Shown: positions 1,427 through 15,864 of the stretch, piece by piece
How the letters are laid out: each line of letters begins with the position of its first letter
How positions within the stretch are numbered: the first letter of the stretch is position 1
From: a virus
Virus genome (UHGV): UHGV-0073665
Length of the DNA: 22,092 bases
Strand: one strand, 5' to 3'
The notes under the pieces: generated by a model
What the model was told of the DNA's origin: nothing
What the model saw: the letters and a program-made list of their open reading frames with translations, nothing else
Databases searched by the model: none
Made by a program: the position numbers and the translations under genes

Positions 1427-2134
1427 ATGGTTCAGAATGAAAAAGTGCGCAAAGAATTCGCCCAGCGGCTAGCGCAAGCCTGTAAAGAAGCTGGTCTTGA
1501 TGAACATGGTAGGGGAATGGCCATAGCCCGTGCCCTTTCTCTTTCGTCCAAAGGCGTTAGCAAATGGTTTAATGCTGAGTCTTTACCACGCCAGGAAAAA
1601 ATGAATGCGCTTGCGAAATTTCTAAACGTTGATGTTGTTTGGCTTCAGCACGGCACTTCGTTAAATGGAGCGAATGATGAAGATACTTTTTCAATTGTTG
1701 GCAAATTAAAAAAAGGGTTAGTGCGCGTGGTTGGTGAGGCAATTCTTGGTGTTGATGGTGCCATCGAGATGACCGAAGAGCGCGATGGGTGGCTCAAGAT
1801 TTATAGCGATGATCCAGATGCCTTTGGTCTTCGTGTAAAAGGAGACAGCATGTGGCCCAGAATAAAATCAGGAGAATATGTACTCATTGAGCCTAACACC
1901 AAAGTATTCCCAGGTGATGAGGTGTTTGTCAGAACCATTGAAGGGCACAACATGATCAAGGTTCTTGGCTATGACAGAGACGGAGAATACCAATTTACAA
2001 GCATCAACCAAGACCACAGGCCAATAACGTTGCCTTATCATCAAGTAGCAAAGGTGGAGTATGTAGCTGGTATTCTGAAGCAATCTCGCCACCTAGATGA
2101 CATCGAGGCCAGGGAATGGCTGAAAAGTTCATGA
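1427..2134 (+). CDS. cI: CI-type phage repressor: N-terminal HTH plus C-terminal S24 (LexA-like) self-cleaving peptidase domain
   Basis: 235 aa, divergent from cro. C-terminal region has the S24 signature (...RVKGDSMWPRIKSGEYVLIEP... then ...KVLGY...), consistent with RecA-stimulated autocleavage. Confidence 0.85.
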   Translation: MVQNEKVRKEFAQRLAQACKEAGLDEHGRGMAIARALSLSSKGVSKWFNAESLPRQEKMNALAKFLNVDVVWLQHGTSLNGANDEDTFSIVGKLKKGLVRVVGEAILGVDGAIEMTEERDGWLKIYSDDPDAFGLRVKGDSMWPRIKSGEYVLIEPNTKVFPGDEVFVRTIEGHNMIKVLGYDRDGEYQFTSINQDHRPITLPYHQVAKVEYVAGILKQSRHLDDIEAREWLKSS

Positions 2135-2263
2135 CTTCATCATCACATAGCTAGTAACCAGTACGTTTGGATGGTGGTGAGAAACACACTGCAAGCAAAC
2201 AGAAACATGGATATTAAAATATTAGCTTAACACAGCAAATCGAAAGAAACAGCGAGGGCTCGG

Positions 2264-3163
2264 ATGTCCCAAGAATTATCTTTAACCTTTACCGAAAACA
2301 TATATTATTCAACTAAAGAACCTGTAAGCATCAAAGATGTGATTACCTCCCTTCAAGGGTGGGAGGCCATCGCAAAACAATCAGAAGGTGTTTTGCAGGA
2401 ACTGACAGGGGCTAATATCCTTGATATATCGGTGCATGTTGCGCGATTAGAAGCAGGAAGCCTTTATGAAGATATTGTTATTAAACTCCTCTTTGGTAGC
2501 CAAGAAGAAATGGACAAGTTTCTTGCTGGCGCTCATGCAAAGATCGGAAATGGGAAAATGAGAAACGCTCTCGTTGGTGCTGTTGTTATTGGTCTGGTTG
2601 GATATGGCTTAGTTCTAGCAACTAAGGCTATGGCTCCAAGCAACACCTCCCACTTTGAAGCAAATAACAATACAATCATCAATATTGGTGCCGGTGAGGC
2701 TAATATTTCACCTGACCGTCTTCAAGCAATCATAGAAAGCACGGTAACCAATAAGAAGACTCTTGCCAAAAGTTCCATTAAGACGCTTGCCCCAGCTAGG
2801 GCAGACGAAGGATCTACGATGGTCATAGGTACAGGGGGTGGTACAGTGACCATTCCCGCTGAAACCATTAAAAAAGCCCCAACTGAAGTTGTCTTCACAC
2901 CAGAGTCATATACTCAGGATCATTTTGATGTTGATGTTGAAATCCGTGCATTAGACCTCGACAATCCAGAGAAAGGTTGGGCTGCTGTTATCCCTGGATT
3001 AATAGATCGAAGAGTAAATATGGTTCTTGGCCCCAACGTAAACCCATCAGATTTTGCAGGTAAATTTTCTGTACGTGCTGATATAACAATAACGTACCAG
3101 CTCAAATCATCAGATAAAAAATACCAACCGAAAGAAGTCTTTATAAAAGAAATAATCAAATAA
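2264..3163 (+). CDS. Hypothetical 299-aa protein with one predicted transmembrane helix (~residues 101-123); cargo gene at the rex-equivalent position
   Basis: Co-oriented with and immediately downstream of cI. GAGGG lies 5 nt upstream of the ATG. Followed by an intrinsic terminator. Looks AT-rich by eye relative to flanking genes. Hydrophobic stretch NALVGAVVIGLVGYGLVLATKAMA. No family recognised. Confidence 0.7.
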   Translation: MSQELSLTFTENIYYSTKEPVSIKDVITSLQGWEAIAKQSEGVLQELTGANILDISVHVARLEAGSLYEDIVIKLLFGSQEEMDKFLAGAHAKIGNGKMRNALVGAVVIGLVGYGLVLATKAMAPSNTSHFEANNNTIINIGAGEANISPDRLQAIIESTVTNKKTLAKSSIKTLAPARADEGSTMVIGTGGGTVTIPAETIKKAPTEVVFTPESYTQDHFDVDVEIRALDLDNPEKGWAAVIPGLIDRRVNMVLGPNVNPSDFAGKFSVRADITITYQLKSSDKKYQPKEVFIKEIIK

Positions 3164-3168
3164 TTATA

Positions 3169-3194
3169 CCCGGCCTCAGCGCCGGTTTTTCTTT
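3169..3194 (+). terminator. Rho-independent terminator after the cI-cassette transcription unit
   Basis: Hairpin CCGGC-ctcagc-GCCGG followed by TTTTTCTTTT. Confidence 0.6.
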
Positions 3195-3361
3195 TCCTCA
3201 CGATCGTCTACCTTATTTAACATCCGCACATGTGCTAACCCACGAACTAACACGCCAGCAAACAATTCTTTCTCTCCTACTGACCAATCTTCAATCTTTA
3301 CAAAAATAAATTCCTTTACATATCAAAAACATATCTCATTAAGTTAATGAACCACAAACAA

Positions 3362-3410
3362 TTCGTACTTATAGTTCTTGATAATATCGAACTATTGGTT
3401 CATTATAATC
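3362..3410 (+). promoter_or_regulatory. OL/PL-like region: operator-like repeats and candidate PL (-35 TTGATA, 17-nt spacer, -10 CATTAT) directed toward N
   Basis: Half-sites resembling those in OR (TCGTACTtatAGTTCT; CGAACTattGGTTCA). Position is upstream of nutL and N. Confidence 0.45.
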
Positions 3411-3453
3411 GCCATCAGCAGGACGCTGGCAGCCAAACGGAACAGATTGGCAG

Positions 3454-3487
3454 GCTCTTTAACTTCGATGATGCGCTGACAAAGCGC
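3454..3487 (+). promoter_or_regulatory. nutL: nutL: boxA-like GCTCTTTAA plus boxB hairpin GCGCTGACAAAGCGC (P22 type)
   Basis: Sits in the N leader. BoxB is a 5-bp stem with GACAA-type loop, matching the P22 boxB-left sequence as I recall it. Confidence 0.75.
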
Positions 3488-3605
3488 GAACAGATACCAA
3501 ACGAGATGGGTTTGGGGTGATGTGAATTGCAGCAGTAACGACAGCAACCAGAAGATCAGCATCTGGCGCATCACCACCAAAGCCATTTCACATGAGGAAA
3601 ACATC

Positions 3606-3914
3606 ATGACGGTAATCGTGTACGGAAAATCAACATTTGCAGGAAATGCCAAAACTCGCCGTCATGAGCGGCGCAGAAAGCTGGCCATCGAGCGTGATTC
3701 CATCTGCAACATCATCGATTCGATCTTCGGCACAGACAGTGAGGAACCTGTTCAGGAAGACCCGAGAAAGCGGTTAAGCCTTTCTGAAAAAGCAATATCA
3801 CTCGGAAGCCTTCGCTGCAAGAAAGTAGATGAATGCAGTGGAAGTGTTTGCCTGCCAAACGTAGCTATTTACGCGGCAGGCTACCGGAAATCAAAACAAC
3901 TGACGGCGAGATGA
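3606..3914 (+). CDS. N: N-type antitermination protein (P22 gene 24-like), start at internal ATG 3606
   Basis: Arginine-rich motif GNAKTRRHERRRKLAIERD matches the P22 N boxB-binding peptide from memory. GAGGAAA lies 6 nt upstream of ATG 3606. The track ORF from 3522 is a 5' over-extension into the leader. Confidence 0.85.
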   Translation: MTVIVYGKSTFAGNAKTRRHERRRKLAIERDSICNIIDSIFGTDSEEPVQEDPRKRLSLSEKAISLGSLRCKKVDECSGSVCLPNVAIYAAGYRKSKQLTAR

Positions 3915-3930
3915 TAAATTCATTTGCTAA

Positions 3931-4512
3931 TTACTTGTTTTTGCCATGCTTATCCTGAGCGATAAGTTCATCCATAAGACTGTCTTTCTTCCCAGCAAAC
4001 CTAATGTAGCACTCATTTCTATAGCGTTCCGGGATAACAAAACGGTCGATTTCAGGATATCCAGTAGCAGAAGGTACCCGAATAAGAAGCCCTTTTTCGA
4101 GCAATGAGATTGCTTCAGGGCTTCCCTTTTCTGTCTTTAGCTGGTTATTAGCGGCTACAGCGAATGCCAAATACGCTCTTTCTCCAAGAGTTAACGAATC
4201 AAACAAATCTTGCACGTATTTCTCTTCTTTAGATTTGCGCTTCTGAGCAGCGAATATCTCAATTCTTACAGTCACAGCGTGATAAGCGGAATTAACAACG
4301 CCGTTAAGCACATAGCTAACGCAAAACAACAGGATGTAATACATCCAGTAATGAGGAAGGATTTCTGGATTATGCAGGTTTATCCATTCTTTTACGCTTA
4401 CAGGCATAACAATAATCAATATGATCAGGATGATTAGCATATGAATCAACTGTTTAAGTGTCATTCCTTGCAGGAAAAAATGCATTAGTTCCTGCCACCA
4501 TGAGTTGTTCAT
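3931..4512 (-). CDS. sieB: SieB-like superinfection exclusion membrane protein
   Basis: 193 aa, opposite strand, between N and ral as in P22 and lambda. Two strongly hydrophobic helices (LIHMLIILIILIIVMPV; YWMYYILLFCVSYVLNGVV). N-terminus MNNSWWQELMHFF resembles P22 SieB as I recall it. Confidence 0.7.
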   Translation of the reverse strand: MNNSWWQELMHFFLQGMTLKQLIHMLIILIILIIVMPVSVKEWINLHNPEILPHYWMYYILLFCVSYVLNGVVNSAYHAVTVRIEIFAAQKRKSKEEKYVQDLFDSLTLGERAYLAFAVAANNQLKTEKGSPEAISLLEKGLLIRVPSATGYPEIDRFVIPERYRNECYIRFAGKKDSLMDELIAQDKHGKNK

Positions 4513-4530
4513 CGGCGTTTCTCTTTTGCT

Positions 4531-4584
4531 CTCTGTAGGGGTGAATAGAGTTTATCCGATTTCTCGCTGTAGGGGTACACGAGA
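4531..4584. repeat. Two tandem stem-loops each presenting CTGTAGGGGT (direct repeat at 4533 and 4567)
   Basis: ctctGTAGGGGTGAATagag and tctcgCTGTAGGGGTACAcgaga, in the sieB 5' flank and within the PL transcript between N and ral. Confidence 0.4.
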
Positions 4585-4655
4585 ACCACCGAGCCTGATG
4601 TGGTTAAAAGACAGGCACAATCTTTACTACCGCAATCCACTATTTAAGGTGATAT

Positions 4656-4742
4656 ATGGAAGAAGAATTTGAAGAGTTCGAAGAGCATCCTCAAGATGTG
4701 ATGGAACAATACCAGGACTATCCGTATGACTACGACTATTGA
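4656..4742 (+). CDS. Possible 28-aa highly acidic micro-ORF (MEEEFEEFEEHPQDVMEQYQDYPYDYDY)
   Basis: AAGGTG lies 5 nt upstream of the ATG. Its 3' end overlaps the ral start in another frame. Too short to support strongly. Confidence 0.25.
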   Translation: MEEEFEEFEEHPQDVMEQYQDYPYDYDY

Positions 4743-4926
4743 TACAAATCAATGGTGTGGACAATTCAAACGATGCAATGGATGCAAGCTGCAATCGGAA
4801 TGCATGGTTAAGCCTGAAGAAATGTTTCCTGTAATGGAAGATGGGAAATATGTCGATAAATGGGCAATACGAACGACGGCAATGATTGCCAGAGAACTTG
4901 GTAAACAGAACAACAAAGCTGCCTGA
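4726..4926 (+). CDS. ral: Ral (restriction alleviation protein)
   Basis: 66-aa product MTTTIDTNQWCGQFKRCNGCKLQSECMVKPEEMFPVMEDGKYVDKWAIRTTAMIARELGKQNNKAA is near-identical to lambda Ral as I recall it. Position downstream of N is as in lambda and P22. Confidence 0.85.
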   Translation: MTTTIDTNQWCGQFKRCNGCKLQSECMVKPEEMFPVMEDGKYVDKWAIRTTAMIARELGKQNNKAA

Positions 4927-5102
4927 TAGTGGCCTTTATTTTTGGCATAAATAACAGAATAAACACTGCACTGTGTATTCATTCCAACGAGTGAATACAC
5001 GGAGCAATGTCGCTCGTAACTAAACAGGAGCCGACTTGTTCTGATTGTTGGAAATCTTCTTTGCCCTCCAGTGTGAGGGCAATTTTTTTTGATGGAGGAT
5101 AT

Positions 5103-5453
5103 ATGAGTGAAGTAACAGATTTAGTTGTTATTGAAAAAGCAAATGCAATGACTGTATTTCAGTCTGCCGACCAGATTGAAGAAATTCTCCAAAAGGTTGA
5201 ACGTGAAGTTATGTCATTTGTGCCTGATATCACAACGGCAAAGGGCAGAAAGGAGATCGCTTCTCTGGCGTATAAAGTTGCGCAGACGAAAACATATCTC
5301 GATGGTCTTGGCAAAGACCTTGTTGCTGAACTGAAGGAAATTCCAAAGCTAATTGATGCCAACCGCAAGACAGTGCGCGATCGCCTTGATGAACTGAAAG
5401 CCAAGGCGCGCCAGCCTCTTACTGATTATGAGGAAGAATCAGGCGCGGATTAA
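5103..5453 (+). CDS. Hypothetical protein (116 aa from ATG 5103), possibly the N-terminal part of a split gene
   Basis: GGAGG lies 8 nt upstream of ATG 5103; the track start at 5007 is less likely. Occupies the position between ral and cIII. No family recognised. Confidence 0.5.
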   Translation: MSEVTDLVVIEKANAMTVFQSADQIEEILQKVEREVMSFVPDITTAKGRKEIASLAYKVAQTKTYLDGLGKDLVAELKEIPKLIDANRKTVRDRLDELKAKARQPLTDYEEESGAD

Positions 5454-6072
5454 AGCCGAAGAAGAAGCTAAGGCAGCAGCTGAAGCTCTCGCAAAGCAAA
5501 TTGAGTCTGACCATGAAATAGCGATTTTGATGGATCGCGAATTTGACCGCCAAAGAGAAGAGGCAAGACTCAAAGCGGAGCAGGAAAAGCGAGAGCATGA
5601 AGAACGATTAAAAAGAGAAGCTGAAGAGAAAGCCAGAGCAGAAGCCGAAGCAAAGGCAAAAGCCGAAATTGAAGCAGCAGCAAGGCGAGAAGCAGAAGCT
5701 AAGGCCGCAGCGGAACGTGCAGAGCGTGAACGCATTGAAGCCGAGCAACGAGCACAGCGCGAAGCAAAAGAGGCAGCAGAACGAGCTGAAAGAGAAAAGC
5801 AGGCAGCAATTGAAGCAGAACGCAGAAAAGCACAGGAGGAGGCTGAACGAATCCGTCGCGAGGCTGAAGCAAAAGAGCAAGCCAGAATAGCAGAAGAAAA
5901 AAGAATCAAGGACGAAGAAGAGCGTAGAGCAAAGGATAAAGCTCACCGGAAAGAAGTAAATAACAAAATACTTGCTGACCTTATCAAGGTTGGCGCATCA
6001 GAAGATGTTGCTAAAAATATCATAACAGCCATCGTAAAAGGCGAAGTATTCGCAACAAAAATAACCTACTAA
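5428..6072 (+). CDS. Hypothetical E/K/R/A-rich charged-helix protein (214 aa), possibly the C-terminal part of a split gene
   Basis: Long run of EAKAKAEIEAAARREAEAK-type heptads, then a short C-terminal segment. Overlaps the upstream ORF by 26 nt with no Shine-Dalgarno before its ATG. Confidence 0.45.
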   Translation: MRKNQARIKAEEEAKAAAEALAKQIESDHEIAILMDREFDRQREEARLKAEQEKREHEERLKREAEEKARAEAEAKAKAEIEAAARREAEAKAAAERAERERIEAEQRAQREAKEAAERAEREKQAAIEAERRKAQEEAERIRREAEAKEQARIAEEKRIKDEEERRAKDKAHRKEVNNKILADLIKVGASEDVAKNIITAIVKGEVFATKITY

Positions 6073-6096
6073 TAAAACCAACATAAGGAACCACCC

Positions 6097-6228
6097 ATGA
6101 TTTACGCAATCGCGGGAGGCGCTCGCATGGGTGCCTTCCAACTAAATGAATCTTTACTTGAACGAATCACCCGTAAATTACGTGACGGATGGAAAAGAGT
6201 TGAGGTCTTATTATGCGCAATGAAATAG
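6097..6228 (+). CDS. cIII: CIII-like protein (protease inhibitor that stabilises CII)
   Basis: 43-aa ORF with AAGGAA RBS. Contains ESLLERITRKLRDGWKR, which matches the central region of lambda CIII as I recall it. Confidence 0.6.
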   Translation: MIYAIAGGARMGAFQLNESLLERITRKLRDGWKRVEVLLCAMK

Positions 6229-6365
6229 CCATCAATCACCAGATGCTTCGTGCTGCACAGAACAAAGCAGTAATAGCCAGATTTATTGGTGATTCCAAAA
6301 TGTGGCTTGAAGCAAATAAAGCGATGAAATCAGCTATCAACCTTCCGTGGTATCGCAGGAAATGA
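6213..6365 (+). CDS. kil: Kil-like small protein (host cell-division inhibitor candidate)
   Basis: 50-aa ORF with GAGG RBS, directly after cIII as in lambda and P22. Segment IARFIGDSKMWLEA resembles lambda Kil (…ATFIGDEKMFREA…), recalled imperfectly. Confidence 0.45.
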   Translation: MRNEIAINHQMLRAAQNKAVIARFIGDSKMWLEANKAMKSAINLPWYRRK

Positions 6366-6520
6366 GTTTTACAGATAACTGGTCAGACGAAGAATTCATT
6401 CGTCAGATTAAAGAATTAATCGGTAACGAAGGAGATATTCATGTCACTTGCAACCACAGTGAAGGAGAGCAAGTTACAGAGACGCATGTACACGCAGAAA
6501 GCTCTCTGGTATCGCCATAA
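6362..6520 (+). CDS. Small 52-aa ORF at the arf-equivalent position (immediately upstream of erf)
   Basis: Start overlaps the kil stop (ATGA). Position matches P22 arf. No sequence recognition. Confidence 0.3.
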   Translation: MSFTDNWSDEEFIRQIKELIGNEGDIHVTCNHSEGEQVTETHVHAESSLVSP

Positions 6521-6621
6521 TGGTGACCGCGAAGGAATGCGGGTATGCCTTAATTTGTCCCGAGTCGAAGTATTAAATCAGCGTTATTTCCTTGGGCCGT
6601 GTCCATTCTGAGAGCAATCAT

Positions 6622-7227
6622 ATGAGCAAAGAATTTTACGCAAGACTGGCAGCTATTCAGGAGAATCTGAACGCGCCAAAGAATCAGTACAACTCATTCG
6701 GCAAATATAAATACAGAAGCTGCGAAGATATTCTTGAAGGCGTTAAGCCGTTACTGAACGGTCTGTTTTTATCAATCAGCGATGAAGTTGTGTTGATTGG
6801 TGATCGGTATTACGTGAAAGCCACGGCAACTATTACCGATGGCGAAAACAGTCATACGGCAACCGCTCTTGCACGAGAGGAAGAAAGCAAGAAAGGAATG
6901 GATTCTGCACAAGTTACGGGAGCTACAAGCTCTTATGCACGCAAGTATTGCCTCAATGGTTTGTTCGGCATTGATGATGCGAAAGATGCAGATACAGACG
7001 AGCATAAACATCAGCAGAACGCAGCAGCAAAGCAATCAAAACCATCACTTACACCTGAACAGGTTCTAAAAGCATTCACTGACGCAGCAATGCAGAAAAA
7101 CACCGTAGAAGAGCTTAAACAGGCGTTCGCCAAAGCGTGGAAGATGCTCGAAGGGACGCCGGAGCAGCACAAAGCGCAGGACGTTTACAACATCAGACGA
7201 GACGAATTAGAAGGGGCAACTGCTTAA
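6622..7227 (+). CDS. erf: Erf-family single-strand annealing recombinase (P22 Erf-like)
   Basis: From ATG 6622: MSKEFYARLAAIQENLNAPKNQYNSFGKYKYRSCEDILEGVKPLL..., which matches P22 Erf closely from memory. The track start 6592 is TTG. Confidence 0.85.
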   Translation: MSKEFYARLAAIQENLNAPKNQYNSFGKYKYRSCEDILEGVKPLLNGLFLSISDEVVLIGDRYYVKATATITDGENSHTATALAREEESKKGMDSAQVTGATSSYARKYCLNGLFGIDDAKDADTDEHKHQQNAAAKQSKPSLTPEQVLKAFTDAAMQKNTVEELKQAFAKAWKMLEGTPEQHKAQDVYNIRRDELEGATA

Positions 7228-7610
7228 TGGCACATTCGATTACAGTAAGACTAAACAAACCCGCAAGAGAGTTTCAGGGCGGGGAAAATATCGGATTCAA
7301 CATCCGTGCTGGCGTTCAGTATTACGATCGCCAGACAAAAAAGAAAGAATGGACAAACTACAGCGCCGTTGTATTTGCCAAGCCGGGAGCGCAAGCGGAT
7401 TACTATCGTAGCGTTCTGGTTGAAGGAGGCATTGTAGAAATTACCGGAGAAAACATCAGGGTTGATGTTTATCAGGGGCAAAATGGTCAATCAATCACTC
7501 TTGAATTACTGAATGCAAAGATTGGATTTGCAACTTCAGGAAACAGACAACAGCAGCAAAGTAGCAATCATCAAAATAATCCTGAATACGACGATTCCAT
7601 CCCATTCTGA
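7227..7610 (+). CDS. ssb: SSB-like single-stranded DNA-binding protein (short, with acidic C-terminal DDSIPF tail)
   Basis: 127 aa from ATG 7227, overlapping the erf stop (TAATG). C-terminal ...EYDDSIPF resembles the SSB tail motif. Sits next to the recombinase. Confidence 0.55.
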   Translation: MAHSITVRLNKPAREFQGGENIGFNIRAGVQYYDRQTKKKEWTNYSAVVFAKPGAQADYYRSVLVEGGIVEITGENIRVDVYQGQNGQSITLELLNAKIGFATSGNRQQQQSSNHQNNPEYDDSIPF

Positions 7611-7633
7611 TTTAGAAAAATAAGGATTTAATT

Positions 7634-7930
7634 ATGCCAGCGCCTTTGTATGGTGCGGATGACCCGCGCCGCTGTTCCGGCAATTCCGTATCGGAGGTGC
7701 TGGATAAATTCAGAAAAAACTACGATCGAATAATGTCTCTACCGCAGGAAACGAAAGAGGAAAAGGAATTTCGCCACTGTATATGGCTTGCAGAGAAAGA
7801 AGAACGCGAGCGAATTTACCAGACATCAATCCGACCATTCCGCAAAGCCACATATACCCACTTCCCTGAATATATCGACCCGCGCCTGCGTAATTACCGC
7901 TCACGCTATGGCGCTATCAGTAATGACTGA
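7634..7930 (+). CDS. Hypothetical early protein (98 aa); sits where P22 has abc2, identity unverified
   Basis: AAGGA RBS. No sequence recognition. Confidence 0.45.
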   Translation: MPAPLYGADDPRRCSGNSVSEVLDKFRKNYDRIMSLPQETKEEKEFRHCIWLAEKEERERIYQTSIRPFRKATYTHFPEYIDPRLRNYRSRYGAISND

Positions 7931-8024
7931 GGAATTTACCATGAGAGGACTTGCTTAAGAGAAAGAGTTTCGGTTCTGTTAATGACAACAAATATCTGAA
8001 TGCGATGTGGCGGAGTGGGAAGAA

Positions 8025-8543
8025 ATGAAACAAATGTCACTAATTGAGATGGATGGTTTTCTGAAAGGTAAATGCATCCCAAGTGATTTAAAGGTTAACG
8101 AAACAAACGCTGAATACCTTGTCCGTAAGTTCGGTGAACTTGAATCAAAACTGGAAACGGCGTTGCGGGAGTGTAGTTCTGCTGGAATCACGATTGATAA
8201 CCTTGAGGCTAAATGCGCGAAGATGGCTGCTGAAAATACCTCACTTAAGCAATCTGAGAAGGAATTTAATGACTTTTGTCGTGAGGAGTTTAGCGAATGG
8301 GAAGATGATGTTACTGAAACCCCAGCCACCGATGCTTTTCTGGCTGAAGTGCGGGCGCAGGGGGTGGATGCTGCTATAGAAGCTGCAAAAAATCTGGTGG
8401 CCCAAGAATATGAGTATAAGGATTTCAAAGCGGCGCAGAGTGATTGCTGTATGCACCCTGGTTCAGACCTGGTAGGGAAGGTTGAAATGACTGAGTGGTT
8501 AGTTGACTTTGCTGCCCAGCTTCGCAAAGGAGGCAACCAGTGA
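8025..8543 (+). CDS. Hypothetical acidic early protein (172 aa from ATG 8025)
   Basis: GGAG lies 9 nt upstream of ATG 8025; the track start 8007 is GTG. Strongly acidic composition. Confidence 0.5.
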   Translation: MKQMSLIEMDGFLKGKCIPSDLKVNETNAEYLVRKFGELESKLETALRECSSAGITIDNLEAKCAKMAAENTSLKQSEKEFNDFCREEFSEWEDDVTETPATDAFLAEVRAQGVDAAIEAAKNLVAQEYEYKDFKAAQSDCCMHPGSDLVGKVEMTEWLVDFAAQLRKGGNQ

Positions 8544-8839
8544 CTGTATGTCTTATTGATAAACGTCGACGTGGGCAACAAATACCATCTGTTGAAATGC
8601 CGAATCACACATGGTTTTGCGTACTTGATATCGATGGTATGGATACGTTGGTTGACACTCGTCATTACTGCGATACCGCAACAGCTACTCCGGCGAAAGC
8701 AAAGAAAATGGCTGCTCTGATAGAAAACTGGACTCCACCTGATGGTTGGTGCAATGGGAATGATCGAGATTGGCACGAAAAAATGAAGGGCTATATCTGC
8801 GATTTTTTACGTAAATGCAACGGCTTCAGGGGGATGTGA
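8540..8839 (+). CDS. Hypothetical early protein (99 aa, GTG start)
   Basis: AAGGAGG lies 6 nt upstream of GTG 8540, which overlaps the upstream stop. Confidence 0.5.
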   Translation: MTVCLIDKRRRGQQIPSVEMPNHTWFCVLDIDGMDTLVDTRHYCDTATATPAKAKKMAALIENWTPPDGWCNGNDRDWHEKMKGYICDFLRKCNGFRGM

Positions 8840-8840
8840 T

Positions 8841-9413
8841 ATGACCAAAATTAACTATCAGGCACTGCGTGAGGCGGCAGAACGTGCAATTCCGGCAATG
8901 GAACGCCTGTTAATGTTGCCAGTTGATGATGATTTGTTAAGTGAACAGGAACTTAAGGATTACGGTGTGGATATTGATGCGCTCAACGCCTTCAAATTTC
9001 TGACCGGACCAGAAACCGTGCTGGCGCTGCTGGATGAACGGGAAAGAAACCAGCAATACATCAAACGCCGCGACCAGGAGAACGAGGAAATTGCGCTAAC
9101 GGTAGGGAAGCTGCGCGTTGAGCTGGAAGCTGCAGAGAAGCGCATTGCAGAACTGGAAGCCGAACCTGTAAGCCAAACTTACAAGTTGAACGAGCTGTCG
9201 GGCAACTATCCGGTAACTCCGGATGGTTGGATAAGCTGTAGTGAGCGAATGCCCGCTCAAGATGATTGGATTTTAATTTATTCAAAGCACGGCGAGTATA
9301 TGGCAGGACAGGTACAAGGGGAATACGTGGAGTTGAGCGACGGCACTTTATCGTGGTTAGGGAACGCCTTGTACTGGATGCCTCTACCGGAACCGCCGCA
9401 GGAGGTTAATTGA
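8841..9413 (+). CDS. Hypothetical early protein (190 aa) with central coiled-coil and Trp-rich C-terminal domain
   Basis: ATG 2 nt after the upstream stop. C-terminal ...PDGWISCSERMP...WMPLPEPP resembles phage DUF551-type domains; this is tentative. Confidence 0.5.
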   Translation: MTKINYQALREAAERAIPAMERLLMLPVDDDLLSEQELKDYGVDIDALNAFKFLTGPETVLALLDERERNQQYIKRRDQENEEIALTVGKLRVELEAAEKRIAELEAEPVSQTYKLNELSGNYPVTPDGWISCSERMPAQDDWILIYSKHGEYMAGQVQGEYVELSDGTLSWLGNALYWMPLPEPPQEVN

Positions 9414-9697
9414 TGGTCTCCTTCGCGAAATATACGATTATTGACTGGATAGCATTCATTCAGGTTTTGCTCATCTGGTTTTATATGGCTTACAGGAGTG
9501 GACAGTGGATTGTCAGTGTAGCCTGTAGCAATGGATGGCGTTGGTGGAACCGAAAGAATAAAAAAGCGCTGGCCTTGGCTTCGTTTTACGAAGCATTCAA
9601 TCTTAACAGTCTTCAGCCTGGTTCTGTCGTTGTAGTCACCACTCAAAGCGGCATGACGATACAAATTCACAAGCCAAAGGAGGAAGGTCGTGGCTAA
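9413..9697 (+). CDS. Hypothetical small protein with hydrophobic N-terminal segment (94 aa from ATG 9413)
   Basis: GGAGG lies 7 nt upstream; start overlaps the upstream stop. Hydrophobic stretch IIDWIAFIQVLLIWFYMAY. Confidence 0.4.
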   Translation: MVSFAKYTIIDWIAFIQVLLIWFYMAYRSGQWIVSVACSNGWRWWNRKNKKALALASFYEAFNLNSLQPGSVVVVTTQSGMTIQIHKPKEEGRG

Positions 9698-9971
9698 CCT
9701 GCAACTTGCCGTTAAAGGTGAATACTTCGATGCCATGATTCGCGGAGAGAAAACGGAAGAGTATCGCCTGTGTAATGACTACTGGAATAAGCGAATTATG
9801 TTCCGCGAGTATGACCGCCTGATTATCACAAAGGGATATCCGAAGCGCGACGATTCCAGCCGCAGAATTGACGTCCCGTATGACGGATATGAAATCAAGA
9901 CAATCACACATCCCCACTTCGGTGATAAACCGGTAAAGGTGTTCGCGATAAAGGTGAATATTGATGGCTAA
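9690..9971 (+). CDS. Hypothetical protein, possibly ASCH/PUA-like (93 aa, GTG start)
   Basis: AAGGAGG lies 6 nt upstream of GTG 9690. N-terminal pattern KGEYFDAMIRGEKTEEYR resembles ASCH-domain proteins; this is tentative. Confidence 0.45.
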   Translation: MANLQLAVKGEYFDAMIRGEKTEEYRLCNDYWNKRIMFREYDRLIITKGYPKRDDSSRRIDVPYDGYEIKTITHPHFGDKPVKVFAIKVNIDG

Positions 9972-10302
9972 ATCAGCAGCAGAGCGCAAAGCCGCTCAGA
10001 GAGCCAGACAAGCTGCATCTGGTGTGCGTAAACTGGAGATTGTGCTTGATGCTCAGGAAATTGAAATGCTGGAGCGTAACTGTGCCACGCGTCGCCCCGG
10101 GCGTGCGCCTTACGAATTTGGTGAGTATATTGCGTTACTTATCCGCCAGGATGATGCTCGCGTGCACGGGCGTATAAAATCGATCAGCAGAAAACGTTGC
10201 GGTAAGTGCGGCGAGAGAGTTCCTGTGAATTCATGCCCGTGTAATGGTGACTCGCAATGCTGGGTGACCAAAGGCTGGCATGAAACGAAATTAATATTGT
10301 GA
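9964..10302 (+). CDS. Hypothetical protein with C-terminal Cys-rich (zinc-ribbon-like) segment (112 aa)
   Basis: AAGGTGA lies 6 nt upstream of ATG 9964. C-terminus has CGKCG...CPCNGDSQCW. Last gene before the terminase; stop codon lies inside the 16-bp palindromic motif. Confidence 0.5.
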   Translation: MAKSAAERKAAQRARQAASGVRKLEIVLDAQEIEMLERNCATRRPGRAPYEFGEYIALLIRQDDARVHGRIKSISRKRCGKCGERVPVNSCPCNGDSQCWVTKGWHETKLIL

Positions 10303-10311
10303 CATGTCACG
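10296..10311. repeat. 16-bp motif ATTGTGACATGTCACG (core perfect palindrome GTGACATGTCAC), copy 1, immediately upstream of TerS
   Basis: An identical 16-mer recurs at 12513..12528, just after TerL. Confidence 0.7.
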
Positions 10312-10323
10312 AGTGGGTTATGC

Positions 10324-11016
10324 ATGATGAATTTGATGGTTTTGAATACTGCCGCCAACTATGGCGGCTTTATTTTGCATGGTACTATTACCACAACGGT
10401 AACTATTACCACGGTGGTTATGATGCCTGCTGAACCTAAAGCCTATAAACGCAAATCAACGCAATTTAAGCCACTAACAGCAATGCAGGAGGCTTATTGC
10501 CAGTCATACATCAAAACGCCTGAAAACCAGACTCAGGCAGCGATTAACGCAGGATTCTCCCCAAATACAGCGGCAGTTAAAGCCAGTCTCATGATGCGCG
10601 ATGAACGCATTCAAAAACGGATTGCCGAGCTGATGGAAGAGCGCAACAAACGAATGCGCGTCAGTGCTGATTACGTTCTCATGCGCCTGGTGGAGATCGA
10701 CCAGATGGACGTGATCGACATCCTCAACGACGATGGGAGCCTTAAGCCAATCCGCGAGTGGCCGAAAATCTGGCGCACTACGCTTAGTGGCTTTGATCTG
10801 TCATCGACCATCATGAACATGAACGAGGATTCGATAGAGACAATCCTCAAAAAAATTAAATGGCCTGACAAGGTGAAGAACCTCGAACTGATTGGTAAGC
10901 ACGTCGACGTCAACGCATTCAAAGAACGCCTGGATGTTAATGTGAATGTGACAATTGCTGATCGCATAGCGGCAGCCAGGAAGAGACTGAAAGAACGCCA
11001 GGATGGCAATCAGTGA
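10324..11016 (+). CDS. terS: Terminase small subunit (alternative start ATG 10420)
   Basis: Directly precedes and overlaps TerL. Region ...KAYKRKSTQFKPLTAMQEAYCQSYIKTPENQTQAAINAGFSPNTAAVKA... is typical of the HTH DNA-binding part of small terminases. The Thr/Ile-rich N-terminal extension from 10324 is odd, so the start is uncertain. Confidence 0.65.
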   Translation: MMNLMVLNTAANYGGFILHGTITTTVTITTVVMMPAEPKAYKRKSTQFKPLTAMQEAYCQSYIKTPENQTQAAINAGFSPNTAAVKASLMMRDERIQKRIAELMEERNKRMRVSADYVLMRLVEIDQMDVIDILNDDGSLKPIREWPKIWRTTLSGFDLSSTIMNMNEDSIETILKKIKWPDKVKNLELIGKHVDVNAFKERLDVNVNVTIADRIAAARKRLKERQDGNQ

Positions 11017-12488
11017 CAGATACAGCGTTATCTCCTGAAGAGCAGTTAATCGAGGATATTGCAGGGTTCACTCACGATCCGCTTGGCTATGCCCTCTATG
11101 CGTTCCCGTGGGGGGAAGAGGGTACTGAACTGGCACATGCCACCGGTCCACGTCAGTGGCAGGCCGATGCGTTCCGAGAGATACGTGATCACCTGCAGAA
11201 TCCAGAGACGCGATATCAGCCGCTTATGCTGGCACGTGCTTCTGGTCACGGTATTGGTAAATCCGCATTCATCTCAATGCTGATCAACTGGGGCATGTCC
11301 ACTTGCGAGGATTGTAAGGTCGTGGTGACCGCCAACACCGACAACCAGCTACGAACGAAGACCTGGCCGGAAATTATCAAGTGGTCAAACCTTGCTATCA
11401 CGAAAGACTGGTTTACCTGTACCGCTACCGCGATGTACAGCAATGACCCTGGGCACGACAAGCGGTGGCGAGCTGACGCAATCCCCTGGTCTGAGCACAA
11501 CACTGAGGCATTCGCCGGACTACACAACGAGCGTAAACGCATCATCGTGGTATTTGATGAAGCGTCGAACATTGCGGATCTGGTGTGGGAAGTTGCCGAG
11601 GGTGCGCTAACGGACGAAGACACTGAGATTATCTGGGTGGCTTTCGGAAACCCTACACGTAACACCGGGCGTTTCCGTGAATGTTTCCGCAAATACAAAC
11701 ACCGCTGGAAAACTGCGCAGATTGACAGCAGGACGGTGGAAGGCACCAACAAACAGCAGTTGCAGAAATGGGTTGATGACTATGGGGAAGATAGCGACTT
11801 CGTTAAAATCCGTGTGCGTGGCATATTCCCTGATGCATCTGAATTGCAGTTTATCCCTACCGGTCTTACTGACGAGGCAATGAAACGGGTGGTAACCGCT
11901 GCGCAGGTGGCACATGCTCCGGTGATAATCGGTGTTGACCCGGCATATTCAGGCGTTGATGACGCGGTGATATACCTGCGGCAGGGGCTACACAGTAAGG
12001 TGCTGTGGACTGGCAACAAGACTACCGACGATCTGATTATGGCGAAGCGTATCGCTGACTTTGAAGACCAGTATCAGGCTGACGCGGTGTTCATCGACTT
12101 CGGTTACGGAACCGGTTTGAAGTCAATCGGTGACGGCTGGGGTCGTACATGGCAACTTGTTCCGTTCGGTGGCGCGTCTACTGACCCGCAGATGCTCAAC
12201 AAGCGTGGGGAGATGTTCAACTCATGCAAGACATGGCTGAGGCTCGGCGGCATGCTGGATGACCAGGAAACAGCGGACGACCTGTCGACGGCAGAGTACA
12301 AAGTTCGCGTGGACGGTAAAATCGTTATCGAACCGAAGGAAGATATCAAAGAGCGACTTGGGCGTTCTCCTGGTAAAGGCGATGCGCTACTGCTGACGTT
12401 TGCGTTCCCTGTGTCGAAGCGTCTGCGAATTCCCGGGCAGCAGAACCAGCAAGGCAAAGCCATCACAGACTATGATCCTTTTGCATAA
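11013..12488 (+). CDS. terL: Terminase large subunit (ATPase plus nuclease), GTG start
   Basis: 491 aa. Walker A-like ARASGHGIGKS, Walker B-like IIVVFDEAS, and a C-terminal acidic nuclease-type region. Start overlaps the TerS stop. Confidence 0.88.
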   Translation: MTDTALSPEEQLIEDIAGFTHDPLGYALYAFPWGEEGTELAHATGPRQWQADAFREIRDHLQNPETRYQPLMLARASGHGIGKSAFISMLINWGMSTCEDCKVVVTANTDNQLRTKTWPEIIKWSNLAITKDWFTCTATAMYSNDPGHDKRWRADAIPWSEHNTEAFAGLHNERKRIIVVFDEASNIADLVWEVAEGALTDEDTEIIWVAFGNPTRNTGRFRECFRKYKHRWKTAQIDSRTVEGTNKQQLQKWVDDYGEDSDFVKIRVRGIFPDASELQFIPTGLTDEAMKRVVTAAQVAHAPVIIGVDPAYSGVDDAVIYLRQGLHSKVLWTGNKTTDDLIMAKRIADFEDQYQADAVFIDFGYGTGLKSIGDGWGRTWQLVPFGGASTDPQMLNKRGEMFNSCKTWLRLGGMLDDQETADDLSTAEYKVRVDGKIVIEPKEDIKERLGRSPGKGDALLLTFAFPVSKRLRIPGQQNQQGKAITDYDPFA

Positions 12489-12510
12489 AAAAGCCCGCGA
12501 ATCGGCGGGC
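12487..12510 (-). terminator. Intrinsic terminator oriented for minus-strand transcription (end of the 140-aa ORF unit)
   Basis: Hairpin GCCCGC-gaatcg-GCGGGC at 12493..12510, followed on the minus strand by TTTTTT (plus-strand AAAAAA at 12487..12492). No U-tract on the plus-strand side. Confidence 0.6.
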
Positions 12511-12512
12511 TG

Positions 12513-12528
12513 ATTGTGACATGTCACG
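12513..12528. repeat. 16-bp motif ATTGTGACATGTCACG, copy 2, immediately downstream of TerL
   Basis: Identical to copy 1 at 10296..10311. Confidence 0.7.
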
Positions 12529-12531
12529 GCG

Positions 12532-12954
12532 TTAGAAGGTTATTTTATCGAATGCGGCGTTGATTGCCTTGGCGTCCTGCTCAGCACCAACCACATCAAG
12601 TAAAGATCTTTTACTAAGCACTTCAGCCAGGCATTGTAACTTCATGTTGTATAAGTTTTCGCGCATGTAATCATCATCACTTTTTTCTTTGGCGTATACA
12701 GCGCGAGAAATATCAAACACATTGCCTTTTTCCATTTCAGTTTTCTGCGCTGAAATCCAGTCATGGCAAGTAACTCCTATTCCATGGTCATCGCTAAGCG
12801 TTAACCCGGCCAGTCCCTCACTCTGAATTACTTCGTAATGCATTTCATTACCAGCAAAAACGCCATAAAAAACGCAGTCTTCAGCCTGAACGATACGAGA
12901 ATATTTTAATGGCCATTCATTTAGATACTTAGCCAACATATCAATTGTTTTCAT
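12532..12954 (-). CDS. Hypothetical 140-aa protein on the opposite strand inside the structural module
   Basis: AAGGTGA lies 4 nt upstream of the ATG on the minus strand. Flanked by terminators. No family recognised. Confidence 0.65.
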   Translation of the reverse strand: MKTIDMLAKYLNEWPLKYSRIVQAEDCVFYGVFAGNEMHYEVIQSEGLAGLTLSDDHGIGVTCHDWISAQKTEMEKGNVFDISRAVYAKEKSDDDYMRENLYNMKLQCLAEVLSKRSLLDVVGAEQDAKAINAAFDKITF

Positions 12955-12965
12955 GATCTCACCTT

Positions 12966-12989
12966 AAAAAAATGCCCGGCGAACCGGGC
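12966..12989 (-). terminator. Intrinsic terminator or attenuator (minus strand): GCCCGG-UUCG-CCGGGC hairpin plus U7, directly abutting the RBS of the 140-aa ORF
   Basis: Plus strand shows aaaaaaa then GCCCGGcgaaCCGGGC; on the minus strand this is a hairpin followed by a U-run. Confidence 0.55.
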
Positions 12990-13065
12990 GAACTGGAAGC
13001 AATGAGTTATGCCTTCCGTGGCTGTACGGGTTTACAGCATGAAGTCATCGCAATGGCGTCCTGCT

Positions 13066-13109
13066 GTAAAAAGGGCGGTGATAGTCCTTCAAGGGAAACC
13101 ATCACCGCC
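13066..13109 (-). terminator. Probable intrinsic terminator for the tRNA transcript (minus strand)
   Basis: 9-bp stem GGCGGTGAT/ATCACCGCC at 13074..13109, followed on the minus strand by CTTTTT. Lies ~44 nt downstream of the tRNA 3' end. Confidence 0.5.
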
Positions 13110-13152
13110 AAGCACCTGGAACTTCTGGCATCACGGTCCTTAGGCGTGATTC

Positions 13153-13229
13153 TGGCGTGGCATGCAGGATTCGAACCTGCGACCAACCGCTTAGAAGGCG
13201 GTTGCTCTGTCCAACTGAGCTAATGCCAC
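13153..13229 (-). tRNA. tRNA-Arg (anticodon UCU), 77 nt with encoded CCA
   Basis: Reverse complement is GTGGCATTAGCTCAGTTGGACAGAGCAACCGCCTTCTAAGCGGTTGGTCGCAGGTTCGAATCCTGCATGCCACGCCA. Folds by hand into a cloverleaf: 7-bp acceptor stem, D-stem GCTC/GAGC, anticodon stem ACCGC/GCGGT with loop CTTCTAA, T-arm GCAGG-TTCGAAT-CCTGC. Confidence 0.9.
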
Positions 13230-13656
13230 AACGCTGAGAGCACTTAGCCTGTTAAGGCGCCACACTTTGTCGCGGCTCCATAAATGCTCTCATCGTTGTA
13301 CCCTCGTCTCTTCCGAGGCGTCACACCGAATCGCCGGGATGGTGAATCCCCGTGCGCGGAATAAAACCGCTCGACTTGCACATTCCGGCTACCTGGTTCG
13401 TTTGCCCGAGCAAGGGAGGGTGCCCCTTAAACGTATCCAGACCGCTATCGGCGCATGTGCCATACGCCGTACTGCTCAAAATAAAAGCTCACTCCACCTG
13501 TTTAATTTAACGACAAGCCAGTCAGGTTAGTAACCAGAATGAGCCCTTTGGTTACCTGAAAGGTAATAATTAACGCGTTAAATGTCAACCTTCTACGATA
13601 AATAAATCATATGTGGTTAAATTGGTAATAATTTAATTGCGTACGGAGTCATTGAT

Positions 13657-15571: not shown

Positions 15572-15864
15572 CAGATTACGAAGACGATCAACTGAAAGAA
15601 GAAAACGCCCGTAAGCAACGTGACATGGCACAGCGTGAAATTGATGACATTCGCTTTGTCATGAGCAGTGAACAGGGGCGTCGCGTTGTCTGGTCGGTGC
15701 TGGAGAAAGGCCGTGTGTTTTCCGCTATCTCACCGATGGACGCTATGGCAATGGCATTTAATGAGGGGCAACGCAATCTGGCGCTGGAACTGTTTCAGCG
15801 CGTTATGGCGCATTGTCCTGAACAGTATTTGAAGATGGCCAAAGAGGCCAGTGAACAGGAGTGA
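15568..15864 (+). CDS. Hypothetical 98-aa protein between portal and scaffold
   Basis: Start overlaps the portal stop (ATGA). No family recognised. Confidence 0.5.
   Translation: MTDYEDDQLKEENARKQRDMAQREIDDIRFVMSSEQGRRVVWSVLEKGRVFSAISPMDAMAMAFNEGQRNLALELFQRVMAHCPEQYLKMAKEASEQE

Follow-up and report, generated by a model that had tools for sequence, protein, structure and literature searches.

The stretch of DNA analysed here, all 22,092 nt of UHGV virus genome UHGV-0073665 (the window), carries a terminase region that is 95%–97% identical to that of Uetakevirus phages, the epsilon15/phiV10 group. An early operon ends with the gene of a 112-amino-acid protein of the gp49 family, and the terminase genes TerS and TerL lie beyond it; a minus-strand accessory gene converges on TerL from the other side (Table 1). 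A short palindrome is present in two copies at this locus, one overlapping the end of the gp49-family gene and one at the junction between TerL and the convergent gene. The repeat had been pointed out in an earlier, sequence-only reading of the window, which placed it just upstream of TerS and just downstream of TerL. Comparison with other phages suggests that the palindrome is probably the DNA site of the gp49-family protein.

Both copies of the 16-mer ATTGTGACATGTCACG were found exactly where they had been reported, at 10296–10311 and 12513–12528, both on the plus strand. The search of the window gave no third exact copy. When up to three mismatches were allowed, four matches were obtained, of which one is the palindrome matching itself on the opposite strand and one is a near copy at 15619–15634. 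Dinucleotide-preserving shuffles gave a mean of 0.16 near matches, and none of 100 reached four. Each copy contains the perfect 12-bp palindrome that had been described as its core (GTGACATGTCAC, at 10299–10310 and 12516–12527). The dyad GTGACnnGTCAC occurs twice in the window against an expectation of 0.009–0.019, far more than chance would give. In relatives, the outer two bases (AT) of the 16-mer vary, and the conserved unit is a 14-mer. The near copy CGTGACATGGCACA could be a weak fourth site or a chance match.

The position of each copy is less simple than a bracket around the terminase genes. Copy 1 is indeed upstream of TerS, but about 109 nt separate it from the likely start codon (ATG at 10420 or 10423), an intrinsic terminator lies in between, and the TGA stop codon of the gp49-family gene (10300–10302) falls within the palindrome. 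The ATG at 10324 given by the open reading frame (ORF) finder is probably not the real TerS start, as judged by comparison with epsilon15. The TerS starts annotated in phiV10 and PAS61 are likewise upstream of the strong terminator. Copy 2 does lie downstream of TerL, 24 nt past its stop codon, but it also adjoins a terminator hairpin, 3 nt away, and the stop codon of the convergent gene, which follows after 3 nt.

The dyad follows the gp49-family gene through its relatives. Among the 80 closest relatives of the 112-amino-acid gene in IMG/VR, copy 1 is present in 78, with no more than one mismatch, and the remaining two loci extend no further than the gene. About 62–64 also have copy 2, in the same orientation and 2217–2451 bp or more from copy 1, depending on inserted genes. 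More distant homologues were found in the Pectobacterium myovirus ZF40 (66% identity), in P2-like Yersinia phages (∼42%), in the N15/phiKO2 telomere phages (35%–37%; gene 46 of N15), and, at ∼30% identity, in Vibrio siphoviruses and Aeromonas phages. For an unbiased sample, protein similarity (38%–81% identity) served as the only criterion, and 27 loci of GTDB species-representative genomes were taken, including Citrobacter, Klebsiella, Pantoea, Erwinia, Rosenbergiella, and Yersinia. At 23 of these loci, GTGACnnGTCAC was present at the stop codon of the gp49-family gene; in 21 the TGA is embedded in the identical register, and in the remaining two a TAA stop is followed 3 nt later by the dyad. 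The 27 loci together hold 33 dyads in 259,560 bp, where 0.25 would be expected.

Whole genomes gave the same picture. Occurrences of GTGACnnGTCAC were counted in eight phage genomes with a homologue and in four without one, with an expectation of 0.02–0.05 for each. Seven of the eight homologue-positive genomes contain one to four dyads against ∼0.03 expected: three each in PAS61, epsilon15, ZF40, N15, and Vibrio phage K303, four in Vibrio phage PhiPS02, and one in Yersinia phage YenM_56.17 (P = 2e-7 to 2e-5 for the genomes with at least three). Lambda, P22, Sf6, and P2, all of which lack the gene, contain none.

The terminase genes of epsilon15 are only ∼80% identical to those of the window, yet TGTGACATGTCACG is present at both equivalent positions. 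The third epsilon15 copy, TGTGACATGTCACA, overlaps the stop codon of gp18, with a terminator directly after it and the convergent, antirepressor-like gp19 next to it. PAS61 has dyads at the same three positions. In ZF40, the perfect palindrome TGTGACATGTCACA occurs three times, once 2 nt past the stop codon of the homologue, and in the P2-like Yersinia phage, TGTGACGCGTCACA lies on that stop codon. N15 carries CGTGACTGGTCACG on the stop codon of gene 46 and two further copies (L208: 28550, 33237, 39269), one within repA and the other between gene 33 and the terminator preceding the antirepressor operon (genes 32–30). The repA copy and the stop-codon copy are both kept in four N15-like relatives. 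In the Vibrio phages, the dyad is near the stop codon of the gp49-family gene. The search of relatives that the sequence-only reading had proposed found the dyad in company with this gene family across five phage groups.

The overlap with the stop codon is not explained by coding, since relatives keep the dyad when the stop is TAA or when it lies 10 nt upstream. The dyad also stays with the gene when the DNA that follows is unrelated, be it TerS, a 77-amino-acid ORF, a LexA-box promoter, a terminator, or the ribosome-binding site of the next gene. With its stop codon built into the primary site, the gene is inherited together with that site as one unit.

The arms GTGAC and GTCAC are identical throughout a set of 50 unique sites. 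The positions flanking the arms were outside the search pattern; they are Y in 50 of 50 sites and R in 48 of 50, extending the dyad to YGTGAC-NN-GTCACR. At the centre, the dinucleotide differs between sites, mostly along clade lines (AT 28, GC 9, TG 3, CT 3, AC 3, others 4). Invariant halves around a tolerant centre are the signature of recognition by a symmetric dimer and not of RNA or DNA structure, in line with the initial suggestion of a dimeric-protein site in preference to an RNA hairpin. That suggestion had extended to the upstream 112-amino-acid protein as a candidate binder, and the linkage of dyad and gene family argues for it as well. We propose that YGTGAC-NN-GTCACR is probably the cognate site, or operator, of the adjacent gp49/gp46-family protein.

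The secondary copies are found at terminators and at joints of the phage mosaic. In Uetakeviruses, each of the three copies has a strong terminator hairpin at a distance of 0–40 nt; in PAS61, three of the ∼8 strong intergenic terminators are so placed, and the window has the same arrangement. Relatives have at least seven unrelated minus-strand genes on the right side of copy 2, starting 3 nt past the dyad, and at least two types of terminator on its left. PHROG searches assigned no functions to these variable cassette genes. At the third site, a unit of hairpin plus dyad is common to flanks that are otherwise unrelated. Directly after copy 1, about 25 of the 80 close relatives have an additional ORF of 70–77 amino acids (phrog_1541; for example L131:4357–4569), whose ribosome-binding site abuts the dyad. 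In several others (L222:1163–1240, L224:563–640, L225, L226, L232), a promoter with an apparent LexA box, TTGACT-17-TATACTGTTTAAATATACAGTA, sits 5–6 nt past copy 1 and drives a small gene, either phrog_2100 or UmuD-like; the arrangement has the look of a cassette under SOS control that was inserted at the edge of the dyad. BLAST homology between relatives often stops at the edge of the dyad, the right edge at many loci. The dyads therefore mark fixed edges of cassette-exchange hot spots. They may have become such edges because the sites are kept while their flanks vary. Copy 2 itself is not immune to change: it is decayed in the Klebsiella relative ST512-KPC3phi13.3 (TGCGACATGTTACG), and in Tyrion a dyad stands beside the stop codon of a cassette gene, ∼530 nt from TerL.

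The same observations would suit a passive boundary sequence, in which a short stretch of shared homology serves module swapping and has no binding function. A recombination boundary had been one suggestion of the sequence-only reading, and boundary sequences are an annotated concept in Sf6. The breaks in homology at the motif edge and the range of unrelated cassettes do support a boundary. A purely passive one, however, fails to explain why the dyad is retained down to 38% protein identity, at the stop codon of one gene family in Uetakeviruses, ZF40, P2-like Yersinia phages, and N15-like phages and near it in Vibrio phages. Nor would it account for roughly 100-fold enrichment, to about three copies per genome, with none in the four phages that lack the gene, or for half-sites that are invariant while the centre varies. 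Fourteen base pairs are in addition very short for homology-driven exchange. We consider this explanation unlikely.

That the element acts in the transcript, as a hairpin forming part of a terminator, as a processing site, or within a short small RNA (sRNA) running from copy 1 to the terminator, is less probable again. In its favor, each of the three Uetakevirus copies stands beside a terminator, copy 2 contributes its first bases to the U tract on the plus-strand side of a bidirectional terminator, and a sub-threshold Rfam match to rseX runs from copy 1 through the terminator (10291–10375; 31.7 bits against a gathering score of 50). The 16- to 18-mer can fold into a hairpin, but a weak one of only −3.5 to −4.2 kcal/mol, and the two central bases prevent the 5-bp arms from pairing in full. 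The 50 unique sites show no compensatory change in the arms. Covariation is seen, by contrast, in the terminator stems next to the palindrome: the stem beside copy 2 is GCCAGC/GCTGGC in some relatives and GCCCGC/GCGGGC in others. Sites also occur in either transcriptional orientation and within coding regions. The match to rseX, an Hfq-binding sRNA, was set aside together with one to the Trp leader; both are below threshold and probably reflect the terminators.

A role in packaging had been among the initial suggestions; the two copies would then be pac-type recognition sites of TerS flanking the terminase genes. Copy 1 does precede TerS in the Uetakeviruses, Vibrio phages K303 (L209 35942) and PhiPS02 have a dyad 20 nt ahead of TerS, and two dyads of PhiPS02 (L211 9–20 and 34669–34680) flank the ends of the linear record. 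When genes are inserted before TerS, however, copy 1 remains attached to the gp49-family gene. Copy 2 is missing from about 12 of 78 close relatives (∼15%) and from BUCT711, besides being decayed in the Klebsiella relative, and packaging therefore does not require it. The terminase genes of N15, ZF40, and the P2-like phage have no site beside them, N15 has none at its cos end either, and a third copy lies about 18 kb away beside the antirepressor-like gene. A packaging signal is therefore highly improbable, and the comparison lends no support to a meaning in the apparent bracketing of the terminase genes, given that copy 1 follows another gene and copy 2 is dispensable.

Recognition by a host transcription factor has equally little to recommend it: the TGTGA and TCACA half-sites resemble the CRP consensus, and the outer bases resemble the symmetric lac operator, but these resemblances were rejected on spacing (TGTGA-N4-TCACR, whereas CRP sites have the form TGTGA-N6-TCACA), none of lambda, P22, Sf6, and P2, phages of the same hosts, has the dyad, whereas it does occur in gene-carrying phages of Vibrio and Yersinia, and a literature search for the motif returned nothing.

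Not every match to the 14-mer belongs to this system. Many exact matches in IMG/VR were set aside as coding coincidences propagated by homology, at the starts of Q-like genes or in a conserved internal gene segment. In L012, L017, L022, L074, L115, and L124, the exact 14-mer lies within the first codons ATG CGT GAC ATG TCA CAG (MRDMSQ) and was treated as such a coincidence; the genes look like Q-type antiterminator genes of the QuuD or phage 82 Q kind. In another group (L024:∼10764–10964, L072:∼1907–2107, L110:∼10810–11010, also L043 and L053), the exact 14-mer is surrounded by arrays of GTGAC/GTCAC(G) half-sites, up to 10 per 200 nt. These IMG/VR contigs show no gp49-family gene in the stretch examined, and the arrays may be an iteron-like element that shares the half-site. 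In L030, the 14-mer lies at 1498 in an apparently coding segment, with a gp49-family ORF at ∼4091, ∼2.6 kb off; the 14-mer occurs likewise in L021, L056, and L119. This group suggests further lineages with internal secondary sites.

The gp49 family comprises 720 clusters at 90% identity in a word-indexed search and 211 clusters at 50% identity in an exhaustive search with a hidden Markov model. Its members almost all stand alone and are 100–135 residues long. PHROG 536 carries the label "transcriptional regulator," for which no experimental basis was found. Searches of Pfam, NCBIfam, and PDB sequences with the single 112-amino-acid protein gave no match. Conserved features of the family are a basic N terminus (AERK..QR.R), a segment resembling a strand followed by a helix (RKLEIVLD.QE.EML), a long helix (EYIALLIRQD), and the motif CxxCG..LP..C..C, in which C79 and C82 do not vary and C99 hardly does; conservation across the family does not extend to the final CxxC. 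When the family profile was compared with PDB sequences, the C-terminal half gave marginal matches to YbiI (E = 0.0064) and TraR (E = 0.015), and hhalign of the family gave a probability of 79.8% for TraR, 2.4% for DksA, 3.6% for P2 Orf82, and 0.3% for the Ogr control. AF2 monomer models were mediocre (pLDDT ∼68). A ribbon-helix-helix (RHH)-like N terminus is weakly suggested, and the resemblance of the C-terminal zinc finger to those of TraR and YbiI is weak; both assignments are leads and not findings. TraR and YbiI belong to the DksA/TraR family, whose members bind in the secondary channel of RNA polymerase. Literature searches on late regulation in epsilon15 and phiV10, SPC32H operators, N15 gp46, and RHH or terminator themes returned no paper on the motif or characterizing the gp49 family. 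The ZX5 paper is limited to the repressor, antirepressor, and integrase, and the "gp46" of a telomere-phage paper follows its own numbering and could not be equated with that of N15.

If the gp49-family protein binds the dyad, it would most likely do so as a dimer with one subunit on each GTGAC half-site, through the basic N-terminal arm and the strand-helix-helix region. The bound protein would then control RNA polymerase as it crosses operon boundaries. We favor a symmetric roadblock or insulator that would reinforce termination at the junction of early and late genes and at convergent cassette junctions, because the secondary copies lie next to terminators where operons end and where genes converge, a symmetric site could act on polymerases from either side, and RHH-type proteins are typically repressors. 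Alternatively, the protein might cause antitermination at the same terminators, supplying the late switch that these phages otherwise appear to lack; the Q-like order of gene, site, terminator, and late genes counts in favor of this. Similarity to TraR, if real, would allow direct contact with RNA polymerase and make either mode more plausible. In its fullest form, the proposal is of a modulator of RNA polymerase tethered at the site, with an RHH-like module reading the dyad and a TraR/DksA-like zinc finger engaging the secondary channel, so that termination or read-through would be decided locally at operon ends and the exchange hot spots would arise as a side effect. This fuller version is doubtful.

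Several observations weigh against the dyad as the operator of the gp49-family protein, or against a uniform action at it. Four of the 27 sampled loci have no dyad at the stop codon, and an Aeromonas phage whose homologue is 30% identical lacks the dyad and shows no repeated palindrome of another kind. The 80 closest relatives give an uninformative footprint, since the left flank is as well conserved there as the motif itself. Where copy 2 is absent, AT-rich cassettes or a plain terminator abut TerL. Some secondary sites are within coding regions (ZF40 gp08 and gp12, N15 repA) and not at operon ends. The context downstream of the primary site differs between lineages, and copy 1 can be set apart from its terminator by an insertion of 186 nt, so that no single spacing-dependent mechanism fits all cases.

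The remaining features of the window are collected in Table 1. The 112-amino-acid gene is preceded by a lambdoid PL-type operon (1427–9960) with cI-like, N-like, sieB, ral, erf, ssb, and ea22-like genes, where PAS61 and epsilon15 have an operon of replication genes. As the PL-type operon ends with the 112-amino-acid gene, an operon that encodes an N-like antiterminator here points straight at the terminase genes. Apart from the pair before TerS, a third site of the ATTACC-N5-GGTAAT type lies at 13551–13567, before a gp3-like gene. Such sites are annotated as repressor binding in the epsilon15 record, including at its immunity region, whereas the lambda-cI-type immunity region of the window has none; the late-region copies would thus be either operators orphaned by a module swap or sites of a factor other than the repressor. 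They were rejected as part of the palindrome system, being a different motif. A tRNA-Arg gene (anticodon TCT) was identified on the minus strand at 13153–13229 by Rfam (73 bits) and ARAGORN, and a Klebsiella relative has a tRNA-Arg annotated at the same place; since it overlaps the 83-amino-acid ORF at 12972–13223, that ORF is probably not a real gene. Two minus-strand terminators lie nearby, at 12974–12989 and 13074–13109.

Table 1. Features of the window in and around the terminase region
Feature	Position	Strand	Remarks
cI-like repressor	1427–2134		Lambda type; upstream operon
N-like antiterminator	3522–3914		Upstream operon
sieB-like gene	3931–4512	−	Upstream operon; ral, Erf, SSB, and Ea22/DUF551 also present
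gp49-family gene, 112 amino acids (epsilon15 gp49, phiV10 p55, N15 gp46; PHROG 536)	9964–10302	+	ORF list and translation; phrog_536 match, E = 1e-54
Palindrome copy 1, TGTGACATGTCACG (YGTGAC-NN-GTCACR)	10298–10311	.	Primary site; overlaps gp49-family stop codon
Intrinsic terminator, GCCGCCAACTATGGCGGC plus T run	10351–10378	+	Between early operon and TerS; conserved in phiV10, PAS61, and epsilon15
Two ATTACC-N5-GGTAAT-like sites	10387–10421 (10387–10403, 10405–10421)	+	Just before TerS; type annotated as repressor sites in the epsilon15 record
TerS	10420/10423 (likely start)–11016	+	Start inferred from epsilon15
TerL	11013–12488	+	With TerS between the two palindrome copies (10420–12488)
Terminator hairpin	12482–12511 (stem 12492–12511)	−	T run on minus strand; closes convergent minus-strand gene
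Palindrome copy 2, TGTGACATGTCACG	12515–12528	.	Secondary, dispensable; junction of TerL and cassette gene
Variable accessory-gene cassette, 140 amino acids (phrog_4846)	12532–12954	−	Stop codon 3 nt from copy 2
Near copy of palindrome, CGTGACATGGCACA	15619–15632	.	One half-site mismatch; within coding DNA of the structural-gene region; kept in PAS61 (L004:18192)

No late-gene regulator is annotated in the Uetakeviruses, a group that includes epsilon15, phiV10, SPN1S, and many prophages of E. coli, Salmonella, and Klebsiella. With the dyad, the PHROG 536 family gains a concrete candidate DNA target, and the pair of gene and site is common to podo-, myo-, and siphoviruses, N15-type telomere phages and P2-like phages among them. 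The sites are tied to terminators and to the exact edges of accessory-gene exchange, among them an antirepressor locus and genes under SOS control. Even on the simplest interpretation, the dyad can serve annotators of these prophages as a marker of where operons end and where cassette hot spots lie.

The closest parallel in gene order is the Q/qut/tR′ module of lambda, found also as gene 23 of P22 and as the Q genes of phages 21 and 82, in which gene and site are adjacent, as they are in the Uetakeviruses; there the regulator gene is followed at once by its site, then by an intrinsic terminator and the late genes, TerS first. The terminator before TerS is such a feature in the window and in epsilon15, phiV10, and PAS61. 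The gp49-family protein, however, has no match to the Q family in Pfam, NCBIfam, or PDB sequences, and true Q genes coexist with its homologue in ZF40 and in N15-like phages. In ZF40, N15, and P2-like phages, the gp49-family gene is not beside the late genes. Unlike qut, the dyad is symmetric, lies on a stop codon, and has extra copies at other terminators. Between the gp49-family gene and the terminator, the only promoter candidate is GTGACA-18-CATGAT, a 9/12 match to the consensus that does not exceed chance; the region has three promoter-like matches against 4.6 expected.

In their placement, the dyads resemble the stoperators of mycobacteriophage L5, multiple short sites at gene ends or in short intergenic gaps, often on stop codons, that are bound by the gp71 repressor and proposed to stop RNA polymerase, not to occlude promoters. 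Stoperators are asymmetric and orientation dependent, number about 24–30 per genome, and block elongation when bound by the immunity repressor. The dyad is symmetric and present in about three copies per genome, and its candidate binder is not the immunity repressor, which in the window is lambda-cI-like and unrelated to the 112-amino-acid protein. The boundary sequences of lambdoid phages (bsq in Sf6 and HK620) are likewise short conserved islands in non-homologous DNA at points of module or cassette exchange, but they are single-locus, heterogeneous, and tied to no protein, whereas the dyad is one defined sequence, repeated and linked to one family across unrelated types of phage.

As for the protein, the RHH repressors (Arc, Mnt, CopG, ParG, and antitoxins) offer a possible likeness for its N-terminal part, being small, with a basic N-terminal arm and a strand-helix-helix region of the kind predicted here, and binding short palindromes with two 5-bp half-sites. 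The C-terminal part, with its long helix, CxxCG..LP..C motif, and C-terminal helix, aligns with TraR and YbiI of the DksA/TraR C4 zinc-finger proteins, which also include P2 Orf82 and lambda Orf73. The similarity is marginal, and neither the last CxxC pair of the reference pattern CxxC-x17-CxxC nor the acidic tip is conserved in the gp49 family. Many phages encode small TraR-like proteins, and we know of no DksA/TraR family member with a sequence-specific DNA-binding domain or a cognate DNA site; a true combination of a DNA reader with a TraR-like RNA-polymerase module would amount to a new kind of position-specific control over elongation or termination. Regulators paired with dyad operators are familiar as such. 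The placement of the site on the stop codon of the regulator gene itself, its pairing with terminators and cassette edges, and the spread across podo-, myo-, and siphoviruses appear to be new.

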